Positions 1,184 to 23,421 of a DNA stretch of 41,413 nucleotides are shown piece by piece. The notes beneath the pieces were generated by a model. The model was not told the origin of the DNA, searched no databases, and was given only the letters and a program-made list of their open reading frames with translations. Positions within the stretch are counted from its first letter, which is position 1. Each line of letters starts with the position of its first letter. A program made the translations under genes and the position numbers. This DNA comes from a virus (Duplodnaviria > Heunggongvirae > Uroviricota > Caudoviricetes), in IMG/VR virus record IMGVR_UViG_2541047940_000004, positions 1 through 41,413 of that record; one strand, given 5' to 3'.

Positions 1184-1215
1184 ACAAAGCCTTGCAATCC
1201 AGTGCAAAGCTTTGT
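1184..1215. terminator. Imperfect 13-bp hairpin between convergent int and tailspike genes
   Basis: acaaagccttgca / tgcaaagctttgt arms with 6-nt loop, one mismatch; lies between two convergent stops; no clear T-run. Confidence 0.35.
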
Positions 1216-1294
1216 GTGTTTCAGTTCCCTCACAATCACTATAATGTTCATTACGGTAATCATAAAACTAATGTATAGTTACATATTGTTTTCT

Positions 1295-3469
1295 TCATTT
1301 CACCACCCAACCAGAATTCCAGCGACCTGATTCTTTGATGTAGAGTCTTCCATTTACGATATCTCGATACTCGCTTCCAGGTGTGGCTATTTGTACTCCT
1401 TCAGGATTTCCAGTGCCAGCAATTATACTGTAACTAACGTCTGTGGCTAAATTCCTAACAATGTTAGCAGGAGGGTAAACGTTATCTGCAACAATAATAT
1501 TTGAGCAACTTGCTGTTACATCTACAAAAAACTCATTGCTTATCGAGTTGTGATAACAGTTGTTACTAATCACACCATTTTTAGCAGATGAATCAATACC
1601 TATAACTGCGTCTCCAGCTACAGATTCAAATGAATTTGATGTCACAGTGAATCCGTGGCATTCGCAGTTAATATGGACAGCTCTTCTTCCGTTCATTGCT
1701 GTATTACCTACAATTGATATGTTTCTACTTAACAAAGTTCCTTTGTATTCGCCATCATCCTCAAATATATAGAATATCGCCTTAGCCGTATCAACTTTAT
1801 TGTTGCTTGCAATCACATTAGCAATGTAATTCCCTCTAAGGAATATCCCATTACATGAATCGACTGTGTTTCCAGTGATGGAAACTCCGTCAACCCATCT
1901 CATATCAAGAATGGAGCCATCACAGGACTCAAAATTATTTCCTGATATCCTCCAGTCTCTGTGAAATATTCTACTACCTTCCAATCCGCTCTCAATAAAT
2001 GTTGGTGTAAGGCATGATATCACAGAATTTCCAGTGCAATTTTTAAATGTATTATGATGTATACACACATCTCTTGATGTTTCCCGAAGAGTTGTGCTTA
2101 CTTTCCTCCCGGTAAATATTATTGCTGGATTAGTGAAATTTATAAATGTGTTTGAACCAATGTCAACATTTTCCCACCTAGAAAAGCCACGAATGCCAGA
2201 ATAAGAATTACCATCAAAAGTACAATGGTGGATTTTTATATCAATAACTGGCTGCGCTCCATCTGTTGAACCGTGATTCCCTACGCCAACAGCCCATGAC
2301 GGTAGAGATTCTGACGGTCCAAAATAACAACCAGACACTTTAATGCTAGCGATATTATCATTGCTGGACAATGGTGTTTCAATCTGAATAGCATCTGAAA
2401 AACCTCTGTTACCTGCCCAATCCATAAACCCCATAAAACGGCAGTTTTCAATATTAACATTTCTCACGCGAGACAAGTCTATAGCATGCGCCCCTGAAAC
2501 ATTAAGGAATGTGCAATCCCGAAATATAATCCCATTAGTAAAAACAAATTCAAATATACTGGCTTGGTTTTTGTATATATTGCCATTGTTATTAAAAACA
2601 CCACCAAATACAGATATATTATTACCACATTCGACTTCAGATGTGTATATGCAAGCAAATGTATTTACACCTGTGTCTGAATTATCAAAAGCACGAATAA
2701 TAGTTGCACCTCGTAGATGTAAACTTGTGTTTGAGTATATCATTATTTTTTTTGTTATTTTTATAAGCCATTCACTACGAAAAGTTAAATTCAAACATCC
2801 GTTTATCTTTGCGATATTTAAAGCATTCTGTAAGGCATCGCTATCGTCGCTTACACCATCACCTGTAACCCCAAACCATGACGGTGAAACCTCATTCCCG
2901 TAAACCCTCTTCCACCTTCTACCGTTAAAACCTACAAGAATTGTTCCGTCATTATCTTCTGATGTCGTATCTGTTGGGTCAGCATAGAACACCCCATCAC
3001 CGCCATCGAACAAATTATTTCTTCCATAACAGATTATTTTGTCATTTGTGCCATTATATGAACGTATGTCTGTATAATTACCACCTCCTAAATACGATAC
3101 CCCGTCAATCTGATTTAGTTTCTGCTGAAACATGTCTGGATCATACTTCAGCACATTAGGAAAATAGAATTGCTGCGCTCCATACGCATCATATACAGCC
3201 ATAGAATGGCCTTGCACGGTTACGAATTTGGCAATCTGTCCGTTATATACCGGATATCCAGCAGCGTTAATGATGATTGGTTGCGAAACAGGGATGTGAG
3301 AACCGTCTTCGTTCTCCACATAAACCTGAATCTGGTTTTCAGGATTTACCGGGTCAGTGTCAATTTTACCGATATAAATTTTGCCATTAGCTACGGCTTT
3401 AAAAGAACGCGCCATAGTGAAAAGTTGCGAAGGCATCGATACGATCACATTGGCTGTAATGTCTGTCAT
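1295..3469 (-). CDS. Tailspike protein: P22-type head-binding N-terminal domain plus beta-helix receptor-binding domain
   Basis: 724 aa; N-terminus MTDITANV...[37 protein letters not shown] matches the P22/Sf6-family tailspike head-binding domain from memory; remainder is Asn/Gly/Ser-rich repetitive and AT-rich, consistent with a beta-helix. Confidence 0.9.
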
Positions 3470-3526
3470 TTAATTTTCTCCAGATACAAGGAATCGCCGA
3501 AGCATGGCTACGGTGAATTTTAGGCA

Positions 3527-3550
3527 TAAAAAAACCCAGCCTAAGCTGGG
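3527..3550 (-). terminator. Rho-independent terminator downstream of ant
   Basis: Minus strand reads CCCAGC-ttag-GCTGGG followed by a 7-8 nt T-run, immediately after the ant stop. Confidence 0.55.
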
Positions 3551-3569
3551 TCGTTGCGTTGGTTATCTG

Positions 3570-4538
3570 TCAGTAGTTATGTACTGAAGGAGGTAATTCT
3601 TTATTCTTAAGTCTTATCCATGCGGAAAGATTCGTTGGTCCGTCTGGCTCATTGATATCAACATCTCGTGTGTGGTTGATTAAAACGTCTCTCGCCATTC
3701 CGATAACATACGAGAATTCATGACCGTAGTCGTAGCATCTGCCGGAATAGTTCGATTGAATTTGTTTCAGCGCCGGATACAATTCGCGGAATAATGCCTG
3801 TGAGCGGTTGGCATAATCCCATAACCATACAAGGCTGTTTGCTTCTTTTGCAGAAAGCTCGTTTGCTTTCTTCTCTTGTTTGCCGATTAACTCGCCTTCA
3901 AGCACTACCCTGTGGATGTACTCTACGGCTTGCGGTATCTGAGATGCATCAAGCTCTTCAATACTTTCCACATTGAAACGCTGATGAATCATTGCATAAG
4001 CTTCTGGGTACATTAGATGCTTTTTGCTGACTAGCATATTTACAGCATCACGAAGCGGAGTCCTGTCATCAACAGATGTTTTCTTACGTGCATTTTCTGC
4101 CTTTCCCTTTGTCCAGTAGTCATGCAGTACAGTAAAGCATTCTTCCTGGTACTGAATCAGTTTATCACGGATGTCAGCACGAACTTTCTCAGGGTTGATG
4201 CTGATCAGCCATCCATTTAACTTCTTCAAAGGAAGGCATAGTAGCTTACGAAGCTTCCCATCAGCGGCAACCATGTTCATATGAACACAGTTGAATTTGC
4301 TAATCTGCTTCATGAGTTTTGTTTGCTGCGTTGACCAGCTCATTCCAAGGTTTTCAACGATTGGCTTCATCGCAACATATGCAACTCCGGCAGCCATGGC
4401 GGTGATAATTTGCTGACCGTTGAATGGTACATAAGAGGTGTTCACTGCTTCTAAAATTGCTATACTATTCATGTTGGTTTTTCTCCACGGATTTACTGAC
4501 AACCGAAGCCCTGACTGTTCCCGCAGTTGGGGCTTCAC
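3570..4538 (-). CDS. ant: Antirepressor Ant
   Basis: Position downstream of arc in the immI operon; ORF start at 4538 overlaps the stop of the upstream ORF (ATGA); alternative start at 4472 (MNSIAIL..., preceded by GGAG) gives 300 aa, the size I recall for P22 Ant. Confidence 0.8.
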
Positions 4539-4756
4539 TGTTTTTGTAAGTCACTGTAGTTATAAAGCCACTGACCACTCATTCTTGCTTTGATTGACTC
4601 TACTGAATCACGGCAAGGAATGATTCCACCTGACATCATTCTGATCTCCGTAAATTCACCGCTCCTTATCGACTCAATGCCATTAACGTTAACTAAAGAT
4701 TTACCTCTACCAAGTGCATTCTCATAGCCAATCTCATCAACCTCAATAAACCTCAT
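4535..4756 (-). CDS. Hypothetical 73-aa protein inserted between arc and ant
   Basis: ORF with ATGA overlap to the arc stop and to the ant alternative start; AGGGG-type RBS upstream; no P22 counterpart at this position as far as I recall. Confidence 0.5.
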
Positions 4757-4944: not shown

Positions 4945-4953
4945 ATTGAGAAT

Positions 4954-4974
4954 ATAGTAGAGTGCTTCTATCAT
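4954..4974. promoter_or_regulatory. Arc operator (Oarc)
   Basis: 21-bp ATAGTAGAGTGCTTCTATCAT, the reverse complement of the P22 arc operator as I recall it. Confidence 0.75.
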
Positions 4975-5001
4975 GTCAATACACTAACTTGGGGTGATGG
5001 C

Positions 5002-5256
5002 ATGGCTAGAGACGATCCGCACTTTAACTTCCGTATGCCTTTGGAAGTAAGAGAAAAATTGAAATTAAGAGCAGAGGCTAACGGAAGGTCAATGAACTCT
5101 GAGTTATTACAAATCGTTCAGGATGCTCTCTCAAAGCCATCATCAATTGTAGGCTATCGAGACGAAGCTGAGCGAGTCGCGGATGAGCAATCTGACGTTG
5201 TTAAGAAGATGGTCTTTGAAACGCTGAAAAATATTTATAGCAAAAGTAAGTTATAG
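5002..5256 (+). CDS. mnt: Mnt repressor
   Basis: 84 aa MARDDPHFNFRMPLEVREKLKLRAEANGRSMNSELLQIVQDAL... matches P22 Mnt from memory; divergent from arc. Confidence 0.9.
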   Translation: MARDDPHFNFRMPLEVREKLKLRAEANGRSMNSELLQIVQDALSKPSSIVGYRDEAERVADEQSDVVKKMVFETLKNIYSKSKL

Positions 5257-5305
5257 GCTTATGACGTACAGTTAACCATATCGATATTGGCTCGCGTGAT
5301 GACAA

Positions 5306-6025
5306 ATGAAAAAAAGCAATGGACTCACATTAAAACTTGACGGAACCACCCCAGGCCAGCTGTCAATGGCTAAGTTGGTCAAGTATATGTCTGCTCTCGT
5401 AGATCTATACGGTTCTGCAGATTCTGTTCACTTCGACTGTGTAAGTGAAGGATCGGCTGACTTAAATGCATGGGTCGATAATGATATTTGTTATAACGCT
5501 GTCATAGCAAGGGCCTCTCTCTCAGCCAAAGAGAAATCACCCGCGTATCAAAAAATTGTTAATTTACTGGAACATGATGGTTTTTCAGCGAAACTACTCG
5601 GACGAAACCACTCAACCATTATCGCATTCCCGCGAGTAAAAAAGGAGCCAATCCCTTTACTCATAACAAAAACGTCAGAAGTTCAAGGAAGGCTATACAG
5701 TGTTGGCGGAAAAGACAACTCAATACCTGTGCGTATTGAGGGAGCCAACGGTGAAACATTCAAGTGCGAGGCAACCCCTGATTTGGCGGCAGCTCTTGGG
5801 TCCCATCTATTCAAATATATTAGGGTTAAAGGAGATGGGTGCTGGGAAAAAAAGAACAACAAATGGGAGCTAAAGAAACTAAAAATAACTTCATTTGTAT
5901 TGCTCAAAAAATCATCACTCAAGGATGCTATTAATGCTATCAAGCAAGTTCCTGGAGATCAGTGGTCCGAGGAACGCGATGTTGATTCAATCCTTAGGAC
6001 TCTGAGGAAGATAAATTGCGAGTAA
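5306..6025 (+). CDS. Hypothetical 239-aa protein, upstream partner of PIN-like gene
   Basis: Long ORF immediately after mnt; AT-rich by eye; stop overlaps the start of the next gene; no domain recognised by eye. Confidence 0.7.
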   Translation: MKKSNGLTLKLDGTTPGQLSMAKLVKYMSALVDLYGSADSVHFDCVSEGSADLNAWVDNDICYNAVIARASLSAKEKSPAYQKIVNLLEHDGFSAKLLGRNHSTIIAFPRVKKEPIPLLITKTSEVQGRLYSVGGKDNSIPVRIEGANGETFKCEATPDLAAALGSHLFKYIRVKGDGCWEKKNNKWELKKLKITSFVLLKKSSLKDAINAIKQVPGDQWSEERDVDSILRTLRKINCE

Positions 6026-6564
6026 TTTTAGATACCAATATTCTGGTATACCTACTATCAGATATAGAACACGATTATAGATTATCTGACCCTATACTTG
6101 GTTCTGAGATTCCAGATGCCAAAAGAAGAGCAGAAGCTCTTGTTGATCGAATAGATAACAAGAACGGGACAATCATCGTTCCAACTCCTGTATTGGCGGA
6201 GTTTTTAGTTGGAATCCATAAAGATTACCAACAAGAAAAACTGAATGTTATCAAATCGTTATCGTGCTTCGAGACTGTATCATTTGATGAGTTGGCTGCT
6301 ATTGAATGCGCATCGATACCAACATTAAAAGAATTAAGGAAAATTAGCACAGAAGGTACAGCAAATAAAATTAAGTTTGACAGACAAATAATAGCAATTG
6401 CAAGAGCAATTAATGCTGACGAGGTATGGACTCATGATAAGGGAGTGTTTGAGCGTTGCAAAAGTCTCAATATTCCTGTGTTCACATTATCATCAATAGA
6501 ACCAATTCCGGTTCAAAGTCTCATGGAGTTCTTACACGATTCAGACGATCAGAGATTACACTAA
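6016..6564 (+). CDS. PIN-domain-like nuclease (VapC-like fold), 182 aa
   Basis: TTG start overlapping upstream stop (TTGCGAGTAA); motifs ILDTNIL (D6), PVLAEF (E62), FDRQIIAIARA (D122), WTHD (D141) fit the PIN acidic quartet. Confidence 0.7.
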   Translation: MRVILDTNILVYLLSDIEHDYRLSDPILGSEIPDAKRRAEALVDRIDNKNGTIIVPTPVLAEFLVGIHKDYQQEKLNVIKSLSCFETVSFDELAAIECASIPTLKELRKISTEGTANKIKFDRQIIAIARAINADEVWTHDKGVFERCKSLNIPVFTLSSIEPIPVQSLMEFLHDSDDQRLH

Positions 6565-6692
6565 AATATAATTTTTATGCATCCGTGATAATTACATCCG
6601 TCACGGATACATAAAGCTATAGCCAAAAGTGGACAAACCTTTATCTCACTCCAAACCATCTGGTATCCTACTCAAAACTAAGGAGGTTGGTG

Positions 6693-6880
6693 TGAAGAAA
6701 AAATTTGTAAACGTTGCAAAGTGCGCAATTTTTATATTTTTTATGACCTTTTACGGATTTAGTGCCGGAGAAGGTTTCGATCGTGATGCCAATGCATTCA
6801 GTTTCTTTTGTCTGTCTATAGTGGTCATAATTGTATGGGTGGAATTAAAGCAAACATTGTTTCATGTGCTAGGGAAATAA
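6693..6880 (+). CDS. Small predicted membrane protein (about 62 aa, two hydrophobic segments)
   Basis: GTG start 5 nt after a strong AAGGAGG; VKKKFVNVAKCAIFIFFMTFYGF...FFCLSIVVIIVWV; track ORF 6629-6880 is the same frame extended. Confidence 0.5.
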
Positions 6881-6897
6881 CCATCCATGGCATTTAG

Positions 6898-8739
6898 TCA
6901 CTGCTGTGTTGCCTCAGTGGCAAGCAGCGGTCTGATGGCATTTGCAGCGTTACTCAACGCTCTTTCATAGGCTGGCGTTCCAGCTTTAGTGTTTGCCAGA
7001 CGTAAGAGCGCATTCCTTGCTGCTTTGGATTCATACAAGCGCATCATTGCACCGAAACCAGCCTCAAGCCCCATTGATACGCCAAGAGTCGCAGTTGCGC
7101 CAATCGTCCTTATCCTGTTGGCTTGCGATTGCCCCGTCTGAGTTACTACATTTGCGGTGTCTGACCTTGCTGTTTGCTGCAGAACTTCATGAAGAGCATC
7201 AAGTTCTTTCATGTGCTTTCCAGAAAAAATAGTGTTGTAAATTTCACCGCCTGACTGAGATTTCAGCTTATTAACTTCAGTGATGAACTTGGCTGGAGAG
7301 TCACCGGCCTTTTCCGCTATTTTGCTGACGTAAGCTGCACGCATAGCATCTTTCCCTTTATCATCCAGTGCGCTCCAGATTCGTTTCACGTCAGATGGTT
7401 TTCTGCTTAATACAACGGTATTTATAAGTTCAGGACTGGCTTCACTGCTTGCCTTGTTGAGCTTGTTAGCAATGTTTTTATTAAGCACCTTATTATAAAC
7501 GTTTGCATAATCGGAATTTGCTTTAAGGTATTTTGCTGCGTCTGATGCACCGAGGTTTTTAGCAACTGCGTTACGAAGGTCTTTTGACATTGCATTCTCT
7601 ACCATATTGGTAGCTGCTTTTGCCTGGTTGGGGAAGACCATAGCATCTCCCTGAACATTAGATCTAAATGCTGTTCTGTGCTGACGCAAGAGATCAAACG
7701 TAACATCCAAATCAGTTGCAGGGTTTGCTAATTCTTCACGTAGGTTACGCAAGGATGTAAGCAGGCTTTGATTGGCAGACGTCCCAAGCCGTTCCTGTCT
7801 TGCGATCGCTGTATTCAGAGCATTCATGGTATTTGTGGTATCAACTGCGGCATTACCCATTTTATTGGTGACGTCATTGATAACAGCGCCAGCGGCATCC
7901 TTCCGCCCCCTTAACGTGGTGGTCAGAGATTTCACCACATCATCAGGGTTGTACTCACCAAAACGGTCAAAATAATTGCTTACCAGCTTACTACGCGTTG
8001 CATATTGCTCCGCTCGCTTTGAGCCTGTCCCGAGCAAAGCCCCCTCGGCATCCTGAGTAAGGCCGCGAGTGAAAGCATTTTTCGGCGGGATAACATCAGA
8101 TGTCATTGGTGTCACGCCCATCGATTCTGATGTGGCAATTTTCTTCGCCACTTCTGGCGCAATATCACCTTTTATAGCCGTTATTCCACGCCCTATTCCC
8201 TTTGCTGCTGCGGAAAGAACACCCTGAGCGGCAAGGTTAACTCCGGCATTTTTAGCTGCATTTTGTGCGAAATCGCCTTTCTGATTTGCGGCCTCTGCCA
8301 GTGATCCAATAGCCATGCTTCCTGCCGTTCCAACTCCTGGAACTAAATACCCGCCAATTGTTTCTCCAGCTTGCGCATAAGGGTCTGTTGGTCGATCTAC
8401 TGGACGATAGACATCGTCCAAAACCTTGGGGCCACCAAGCCCCTGGCTGATTGCATTAATCAGACTTGCGCCACCCTGCAATACGTCAAATGGTATGTTT
8501 ACCAGACCACGACCAGCCTGCTCTGCAATTTGCCCTGCACTTTGACCATCTGTGAGCCAATCGCCAGCTTGTTGCATCAATGATGGTTCTTCACGTGCTG
8601 GTTCATTATTGGCCTGATTAACTGTTTGTTGCTGAACAGCCTGACCAGCAAAATACTCATCAATGGCGGTGCCAATATCTTCCGTGCTCGTACCATCAGG
8701 GAAGGTAAATGTCTTACCGTTTGCAGTTACTTTCATCAT
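6898..8739 (-). CDS. Ejection (injection) protein, P22 gp16-like
   Basis: 613 aa; last gene of the P22-order virion operon; size and position match gp16; Ala/Gly-rich. Confidence 0.75.
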
Positions 8740-23265: not shown

Positions 23266-23341
23266 TGGTGCTGGTTAACGGACTTGAACCGCTACCCATT
23301 CGCTTACAAGGCGACCGCTCTACCATTGGAGCTAAACCAGC
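23266..23341 (-). tRNA. Phage-encoded tRNA-like gene, anticodon UGU (Thr)
   Basis: Hand-folded cloverleaf: 7-bp acceptor GCTGGTT/AACCAGC, D-stem GCTC/GAGC, anticodon loop CUUGUAA (U33, A37), T-arm AGCGG-TTCAAGT-CCGTT, discriminator A plus CCA; one G-A mismatch at the base of the anticodon stem. Confidence 0.6.
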
Positions 23342-23346
23342 ATATT

Positions 23347-23421
23347 TGGCGGGACAGCGTGGACTCGAACCACGATAAGAAGGTTAACAGCCTTCCGTAA
23401 TGACCTTTATACGACTGACCC
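23347..23421 (-). tRNA. Phage-encoded tRNA-like gene, anticodon GUU (Asn)
   Basis: Hand-folded: acceptor GGGTCAG/CTGTCCC (one U-U mismatch), anticodon arm GAAGG-CUGUUAA-CCTTC, T-arm CGTGG-TTCGAGT-CCACG, CCA end; D-stem imperfect. Confidence 0.5.

Follow-up and report, generated by a model that had tools for sequence, protein, structure and literature searches.

HEC-03, a validated phage defence system, pairs an ABC ATPase sensor with a VapC-like PIN protein (10.1101/2024.01.29.577857). DS-5 (PN12; WP_021513008.1 and WP_021513009.1) is an experimentally validated two-gene system of Escherichia coli, composed of a 166-residue DUF5830/AcrIF4-like protein and a PIN ribonuclease whose catalytic residues D7 and E44 are required for defence (PMC13092281). 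Both genes of DS-5 are needed, deletion of the non-PIN partner is not toxic, and DS-5 is not a toxin–antitoxin (TA) system (PMC13092281). Here we describe another pair of this general kind, referred to as A–B, which lies in a 41,413-nucleotide stretch of DNA from a virus of the Caudoviricetes (IMG/VR record IMGVR_UViG_2541047940_000004, positions 1 to 41,413; the whole stretch is called the window). Gene A (5306–6025, + strand, ATG start) encodes a protein of 239 residues and gene B (6016–6564, + strand, TTG start) one of 182 residues. The coordinates of both open reading frames (ORFs), as given in a first-pass annotation of the window, were all confirmed from the sequence. We take A–B to be a mobile two-protein module, expressed in lysogeny, that would provide a TA-like, abortive infection-type defence against other phages, and we put the probability of this reading at about 0.55.

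Like DS-5, A–B has a protein of unknown function encoded upstream of a PIN protein. The partners differ in size (239 versus 166 residues), and DUF5830 (PF19148) was unmatched in A and in 72 of its homologs at E ≤ 0.1. The working name PN12 suggests a PIN_12-type PIN in DS-5; compared by description only, B matched PIN_12 only at E 0.025 (below the cut-off) and carries its glutamate as E62 against E44. Identity with DS-5 was rejected, since the two pairs disagree in their accessions, in the size of the partner and in its domain. Like HEC-03, A–B combines a VapC-like PIN protein with a partner that is not VapB. Unlike the ABC ATPase of HEC-03, A has neither an NTPase motif nor an NTPase fold, and identity with that system was also rejected.

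The other close relatives are the VapBC and FitAB pairs (Shigella and Salmonella VapBC, Rickettsia VapBC2 and Neisseria FitAB). Like these, A–B has a VapC fold with four acidic residues in B, a partner gene that lies upstream and overlaps, and a variable tail with a conserved arginine in A. The tails of VapB and FitA insert into the PIN pocket. Unlike VapB (~70–100 residues), A has no ribbon-helix-helix, AbrB, HTH or Phd DNA-binding domain; the earlier remark that A is uncharacterised and greatly exceeds a VapB antitoxin in size was correct. Moreover, A–B usually rides in a prophage repressor operon, whereas VapBC regulates itself.

B matched Pfam PIN (PF01850) with an E value of 4.1e-10 (40.8 bits against a cut-off of 23.6), and at least 197 homologs were found. 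In an alignment of 62 sequences, reaching down to ~29% identity, D6, E62, D122 and D141 were invariant. These are the four residues that had been picked out by eye as PIN hallmarks, and their numbering was correct. Also invariant in the 62 homologs were R38, P56, P58, V59, F90, E97 and the motif F121-D-R-Q-I125. The AlphaFold (AF2) model of B was confident (predicted local distance difference test, pLDDT, 86.4) and showed a Rossmann-like α/β/α PIN fold. Foldseek returned a probability of 1.00 for many VapC and PIN structures, the best being VapC toxins. The best PDB matches were Rickettsia VapC2 (E 6e-7), the VapC proteins of Shigella, Salmonella and the F plasmid, and several of the Mycobacterium tuberculosis VapCs; the nearest folds include VapC toxins that cleave tRNA and rRNA.

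It may be noted that B is not a canonical VapC. At 182 residues, as compared with ~132, it has lower-confidence insertions at ~11–20 and 101–120 as well as a C-terminal tail, and it scored far below the NCBIfam VapC cut-offs (27.1 versus 140 bits for NF047863, 19.9 versus 73.6 for TIGR00028, and 14.8 versus 80 for NF047959). The protein is acidic (pI 5.1) and belongs to PHROG 21691, of unknown function. As judged from its sequence and predicted fold, B is a PIN nuclease of the VapC type whose active site is intact and conserved, and we propose it as the effector of the module.

The junction between the two genes (6004..6025, + strand) was then considered. The TTG start codon of B at 6016 precedes the TAA stop codon of A at 6023–6025, giving a 10-nucleotide overlap, TTGCGAGTAA, at 6016–6025; a GAGG Shine–Dalgarno motif (6004–6007) is contained in the last codons of A. 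Junctions were tight in all 20 non-redundant loci compared, with an overlap of 1, 4, 10 or 14 nucleotides or a gap of 1–4 nucleotides. Across these junctions the Shine–Dalgarno motif lies inside the last codons of A, and B starts with TTG in eight cases, GTG in four and ATG in eight. Translational coupling through the TTG overlap, as proposed in the first-pass annotation, was confirmed here and is conserved across phyla.

In every case examined, distant homologs of A or B had the partner gene adjacent. The contexts covered were lambdoid prophages of Pseudomonas, an island of Pectobacterium, prophages of Leclercia and Providencia, Marinobacterium, and Binatia. The upstream partners were full-length homologs of A (E 1e-37 for Providencia, 2e-24 for Marinobacterium and 7e-23 for Binatia), and 20 further viral contigs showed the same pairing. 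For linkage, 38 fetched A-carrying loci were taken together with the window, and 37 had readable downstream sequence. B was adjacent and intact in 35 of these 37, and the other two carried a remnant of B; no B without A was seen in the four B contexts sampled. In both defective copies A was intact, B being frameshifted in one (L037) and truncated, then followed by another ORF, in the other (L035). Decay of B only is what would be expected of a toxin/antidote pair. The region 6653–7374 of L035 consists of a 60-residue remnant of the PIN gene and a 164-residue ORF (MTPEELRELFNYDPETGVLTW...), which by eye looks like an HNH/homing endonuclease-like insertion.

When pairwise identities were compared for 26 non-redundant pairs, those of A correlated with those of B (Pearson 0.95; Mantel test, 0 of 2000 permutations). 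Therefore, the partners have not been swapped. A is thus an obligate, co-evolving and translationally coupled upstream partner of B.

A had no match in Pfam, NCBIfam or PADLOC, and 72 family members scanned singly against Pfam and NCBIfam likewise had none. Sequence and profile searches of the PDB with A gave nothing significant. Weak matches to USP7, the macro domain, TCAD3 and ABATE (E 0.002–0.6, in at most two of the 72 members) were discarded as noise. The protein is assigned to PHROG 19868, of unknown function. A single-sequence search with A gave 58 homologs from Enterobacterales and Pseudomonas, and a profile seeded with the distant partners gave at least 416, Alphaproteobacteria included. 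When 1.84 billion representatives were searched with a profile, the family comprised 2,142 clusters (50% identity) at E ≤ 1e-3, with 565 at E ≤ 1e-30. Nearly all members have 235–265 residues and match over their full length, and no fusions were present among the best 150.

The AF2 model of A was confident (pLDDT 90.5) and consists of three parts. The N-terminal α/β domain (~residues 1–112; 5306..5641, + strand), of the order β-α-β-β-α-α-β-β, is the most conserved part of the protein (D12, P16, M21, R/K23, L24, Y27, L31, G36, V41, H42, F43, G49 and S50) and had no structural counterpart among the matches listed. It is followed by a β-barrel of the nucleic acid-binding OB type (residues 118–199; 5657..5902, + strand), where at least 97% of the sequences retain F169, R173, W180, K182, W187 and F197. 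The C-terminal tail (residues 200–239; 5903..6022, + strand) comprises two helices with a pLDDT of 67–80. Within this variable tail W220 and R234 are near-invariant, R234 being present in 26 of 26 non-redundant tails and in 99% of the A alignment. A is basic (pI 9.1, and 9.4 for the OB domain). The first-pass annotation had recognised no domain in A. This holds for the Pfam, NCBIfam and PADLOC profiles, but the model contains a clear OB-fold of the nucleic-acid type.

A five-stranded OB barrel is common to A and to OB proteins of the SSB, RPA, PriB and Stn1 types, with a sequence identity of only 7–20%. Unlike SSB-type proteins, A has the additional conserved N-terminal domain and an obligate pairing with a nuclease. 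Neither Pfam SSB nor tRNA_anti matched A, and in the profile search of the PDB the best single-stranded DNA (ssDNA)-binding protein appeared at a non-significant E value of 0.23. Some structural neighbours of the OB domain are the tRNA anticodon-binding OB domains of LysRS and AsnRS. We propose that A serves the PIN nuclease as regulator, sensor or partner, and that its tail may serve as a PIN-binding, neutralising element or as an oligomerisation element.

With A as an inhibitor, the module could work as follows. A would bind B and keep it inactive, possibly with its C-terminal tail inserted in the acidic pocket of the PIN domain, by analogy with the tails of VapB and FitA. Infection might be sensed by the OB-fold or the N-terminal domain, through a single-stranded nucleic acid or a protein of the phage; alternatively, A might be depleted on infection. 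The released B would then cleave RNA, probably tRNA or rRNA as VapC does, and translation and phage growth would stop. The inhibitor role is favoured by the antitoxin-first gene order, the weak start codons of B and the decay of B only.

The same two proteins could also defend in another way, with A activating or targeting B: the OB domain would bind phage ssDNA, RNA or tRNA, and recruit or license B to cut. Both proteins would then be needed, B alone would be non-toxic, and cell death would be unnecessary. The nucleic acid-type OB-fold of A, with its invariant aromatic and basic residues, is in line with such a role. So is the likeness of this domain to the anticodon-binding domains of LysRS and AsnRS, given that VapC enzymes cut tRNA. 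A is, besides, a large protein whose globular domains are conserved more than its tail, and DS-5 (PMC13092281) and HEC-03 (10.1101/2024.01.29.577857) are precedents. The gene order, the overlap, the weak starts of B and its selective decay, however, suit the inhibitor model at least equally, and we regard an activating or targeting role of A as possible though doubtful.

The position of A–B was compared with the curated record of phage P22, which in the same orientation reads gene 9, ant, arc, Pant/Pmnt, mnt, orf59a, a terminator, PsieA, sieA and gene 16. In the window, mnt (5002–5256, + strand) encodes an Arc/Mnt ribbon-helix-helix maintenance repressor (Pfam Arc E 6e-27, Repressor_Mnt E 5e-13; RefSeq label, Arc family DNA-binding protein) and forms the left boundary of the cassette. 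A gp16-type DNA-transfer gene (6898–8739, − strand) lies on the other side, convergent to the cassette. From the gene order in the P22 record, A–B occupies the orf59a/sieA slot, as had been claimed for the interval between mnt and the gp16 homolog. A–B is a real and well-delimited unit, extending from 5257 to ~6657; the stretch up to 6700 is a linker common to the unit of a small downstream ORF, described below.

The cassette had also been called a visibly AT-rich insert. This was so chiefly over B and downstream of it (35–38% GC, as compared with 47–53% in the structural genes). A is at 40–44% GC, and the tailspike region (1200–3000) is equally AT-rich; the tailspike gene itself lies at 1295–3469 (− strand), in a region of 33–38% GC.

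A Pmnt-like promoter (4946..4974, + strand, TTGAGA-17-TATCAT) faces a Pant-like promoter (4979..4951, − strand). The two match the consensus at 10 and 11 of 12 positions, respectively, and the same arrangement is annotated in P22. In a consensus scan, no promoter- or terminator-like site was found between mnt and A. Since such signals are absent there, mnt, A and B are probably co-transcribed from the Pmnt-like promoter, and A and B would hence be made in lysogens.

A hairpin (6574..6615, + strand) begins 10 nucleotides after the stop codon of B, with arms at 6574–6588 and 6601–6615. It had been noted as an 8-bp inverted repeat, but its arms are in fact 15 nucleotides long and 93% complementary, and the RNA has a folding energy of −17.1 kcal/mol (z = −4.7). 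As no T-run follows this stable hairpin, a canonical intrinsic terminator was rejected. It is probably the operon end or a transcript-stabilising hairpin. Comparison of the hairpin and its surroundings with Rfam gave no match at E ≤ 1. Three divergent cassettes (L012, L015 and L004) have canonical terminators directly after B.

Of 28 non-redundant loci, 26 had a co-oriented gene directly upstream of A–B. A repressor of the S24 type (Peptidase_S24, CI/LexA-type) was directly upstream in 7 of the 28 and within three genes in 11; other upstream neighbours were HTH-only CI-type repressors and, in this window, Mnt. The repressor neighbour is mnt in P22-like phages, and cI in lambdoid prophages of Pseudomonas, Leclercia and Providencia. 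Pseudomonas phage Ostro likewise has a CI-like repressor, a hypothetical protein that is a homolog of A, and then a 'nuclease'. From this pattern, A–B is found repeatedly in an operon of a repressor that maintains lysogeny. In phage lambda, rexAB lies downstream of cI, in the repressor operon. Like P22 SieA and lambda RexAB, A–B is therefore cargo placed beside a maintenance repressor and co-oriented with it. Unlike the membrane proteins SieA (164 residues, inner membrane) and RexB, A and B are predicted to be soluble, and no relationship in sequence or fold was found. In two prophages of the Pseudomonas syringae group (L009 and L010, 5177–5854), a DUF4145 gene lies between the CI-type repressor and A–B, as a second cargo in the repressor operon.

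Most P22-like phages lack A–B and have other cargo in the slot. In phiv205-1 (L003), the mnt–gp16 slot (2206–3661) holds a ClpP-like gene of 178 residues (PF00574, E 4e-12), which bears the label 'head maturation protease' in the deposited sequence. The opposite strand of the same slot encodes a 159-residue ORF with a weak PADLOC match to NsnC (E 9e-6) and one of 90 residues that contains a Panacea/SocA antitoxin domain (PF13274, E 4e-14), and the two look like a PanA-type TA pair. With sieA in P22 and the Panacea pair in phiv205-1, the slot carries exclusion or TA cargo elsewhere.

A–B might instead serve the phage itself, and its position beside repressor genes, together with the OB similarity of A to SSB, RPA and PriB, would agree with such a use. 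A–B would then be a lysis–lysogeny accessory (a sensor of ssDNA or SOS that trims transcripts) or a helper of replication or recombination (an SSB-like protein with a flap-type nuclease); the wider PIN-like superfamily does include FEN and flap nucleases. We consider this highly improbable. The folds nearest to B are VapC and not FEN-type, and A–B is transcribed opposite to the late operon, alongside the lysogenic repressor. Only 2 of 50,697 deposited phage genomes encode a relative of A, and the pair, absent from most P22-like phages, also occurs outside prophages: in the Pectobacterium island it lies by Fic and insertion sequence (IS) genes, in Marinobacterium by an Mrr-like gene and in Binatia beside IS1595, and a few copies are on plasmids or chromids.

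Spread over diverse mobile elements of this kind (prophages, IS-flanked islands, plasmids or chromids) would equally be expected of a plain addiction module, which stabilises its carrier prophage or island by post-segregational killing and gives no meaningful protection against phages. The PIN toxin fold, the gene order and the coupling are typical of type II TA systems, and the decay of B only fits as well. Against this, A–B has inserted recurrently in lysogeny cargo slots occupied elsewhere by exclusion or defence genes (the rexAB-like position and the sieA slot), the OB-fold and N-terminal domain of A are unneeded for simple neutralisation, and B was scored as defensive by DefensePredictor. 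We therefore think it unlikely that addiction is the whole function. Many TA modules do both jobs, so that addiction does not exclude defence.

In E. coli, the distribution of A–B is patchy: it was present in 33 of 5,426 complete genomes, at 99.4–99.9% identity. It is carried there by P22-like prophages at different chromosomal sites, adjacent to torT in strain AST20 and to ybhB/bioA in strain MLI121. Defence genes are now and then found beside the pair. In one viral contig (L032), a type IIG restriction–modification enzyme (E 4e-224) is encoded immediately downstream of A–B, and L016 has an Mrr-like gene as a neighbour.

Searches with the accessions WP_000749484.1 and WP_001263856.1 and with keywords found no prior description of A–B. 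The pair may have been tested by Brenes & Laub (2025), who reportedly validated defence systems from E. coli prophages. B (WP_001263856.1) is listed in Table S10 of DefensePredictor with a mean log-odds of 6.81 and predicted_defensive TRUE, in an uncharacterised cluster labelled 'Predicted novel defense gene' with no homology to known defence proteins (PMC13092281). Predictions tested in that study were validated at a rate of 45%, and in the tables examined B is absent from the cloned units (PMC13092281). The first-pass annotation had allowed that A and B might fall into a well-characterised non-defence family; no profile placed either of them in one, and the PIN residues, whose variation among homologs it had named as a further objection, are conserved. 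Its view of the locus as an uncharacterised defence, abortive-infection or atypical TA module agrees with the PIN effector, the coupling, the slot, the repressor operons and the DefensePredictor call. The small membrane ORF, however, does not belong to the module.

Several observations weigh against defence by a TA-like module. PADLOC-DB 2.0.0 had no family for A, B or the small ORF at E ≤ 1, and assignment to a known defence system of PADLOC 2.0 was accordingly rejected. Most neighbours of A–B are ordinary prophage genes and not defence islands. A has no DNA-binding antitoxin domain and, with 239 residues and two conserved globular domains, is unlike a simple antitoxin. Since the partner protein of DS-5 is required and is not an antitoxin, an inhibitory role of A is not assured. 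The asymmetric decay of B was seen in just two defective copies, and simple linkage would also yield the co-divergence of A and B. No T-run accompanies the hairpin downstream of B, and co-transcription with mnt is deduced only from absent consensus signals. Toxicity, neutralisation and phage resistance are predictions from the sequence.

If A–B does defend, the few PIN-effector partners known besides VapB, an ABC ATPase in HEC-03 and a DUF5830 protein in DS-5, would be joined by a new type with an α/β domain plus an OB-fold. The family of A, with more than 2,000 clusters across Proteobacteria and beyond and no Pfam model, would gain a function. The OB-fold offers a testable handle on the infection-triggered switching of VapC-type proteins, which is still poorly understood, and A–B is a concrete test case for an unvalidated call of DefensePredictor. 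More speculatively, A–B might be the founding example of a widespread, unnamed immune module, in which an OB sensor of single-stranded nucleic acid made during infection, or of a phage protein directed at SSB-like folds, unleashes a VapC-like RNase; we advance this tentatively and do not hold it to be likely. If true, it would amount to TA-style innate immunity based on nucleic-acid sensing, and both the sensor family and its N-terminal domain would be new. What the present analysis mainly offers is the large A family, so far without annotation, and an OB-fold sensor hypothesis that can be tested. In addition, the same cargo is exchanged between two sites, the mnt–gp16 slot in P22-like phages and the position behind cI in lambdoid prophages, which makes prophage repressor operons a good hunting ground for defence genes outside classical defence islands.

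Downstream of the hairpin is an ORF of 62 residues (6692..6880, + strand; PHROG 21338, of unknown function) with two predicted transmembrane segments. As described earlier, it has a GTG start at 6692, with AAGGAGG (6680–6686) 5 nucleotides before it, and two hydrophobic segments. Its earlier inclusion in the cassette did not stand. In phiv205-1, JEP4 and UPF_BP1, the small ORF and the gp16 flank are present at 99% identity without A–B. In E. coli MLI121, A–B is followed by a different ORF of 75 residues, dissimilar to that of the window. Because of this mosaic occurrence with and without A–B, the 62-residue ORF is, on comparison of these genomes, an independent and separable moron outside the A–B module. 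Its identification as a remnant of sieA or orf59a was rejected (E 0.49 against SieA). In E. coli AST20 the PGAP annotation omits the ORF.

A conserved linker of ~45 bp (6657..6700, + strand), CATCTGGTATCCTnCTCAAAACTAAGGAGGTTGGTGTGAAG, forms the mosaic junction of the A–B and small-ORF units and carries the AAGGAGG and the GTG start. It is common to the window, phiv205-1 and MLI121, and the ORF bodies that come after it differ. The match boundaries at the linker fall at query positions 1401/1418 and 1438/1441. The linker resembles a recombination junction, one that would at the same time serve as a portable region for translation initiation.

The window begins with a gene for an IntS-type integrase (1–1158, + strand), which adjoins the tailspike gene. 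P22-like phages have these genes in this order in their vegetative (circular) form and not in the prophage; the 41.4-kb window may therefore represent an entire phage genome, opened at int. The label of an 'argW' prophage had its sole basis in the integrase, which is indeed IntS-type, but no tRNA-Arg gene, the candidate attachment site, was found in the window. Between arc and the antirepressor gene, at a position where the curated P22 record has no gene, there is an ORF of 73 residues (4535–4756, − strand; RefSeq hypothetical protein WP_001210981.1). At 23266–23421 (− strand), the phage genome itself encodes tRNA-Thr(tgt) and tRNA-Asn(gtt) in two neighbouring genes.

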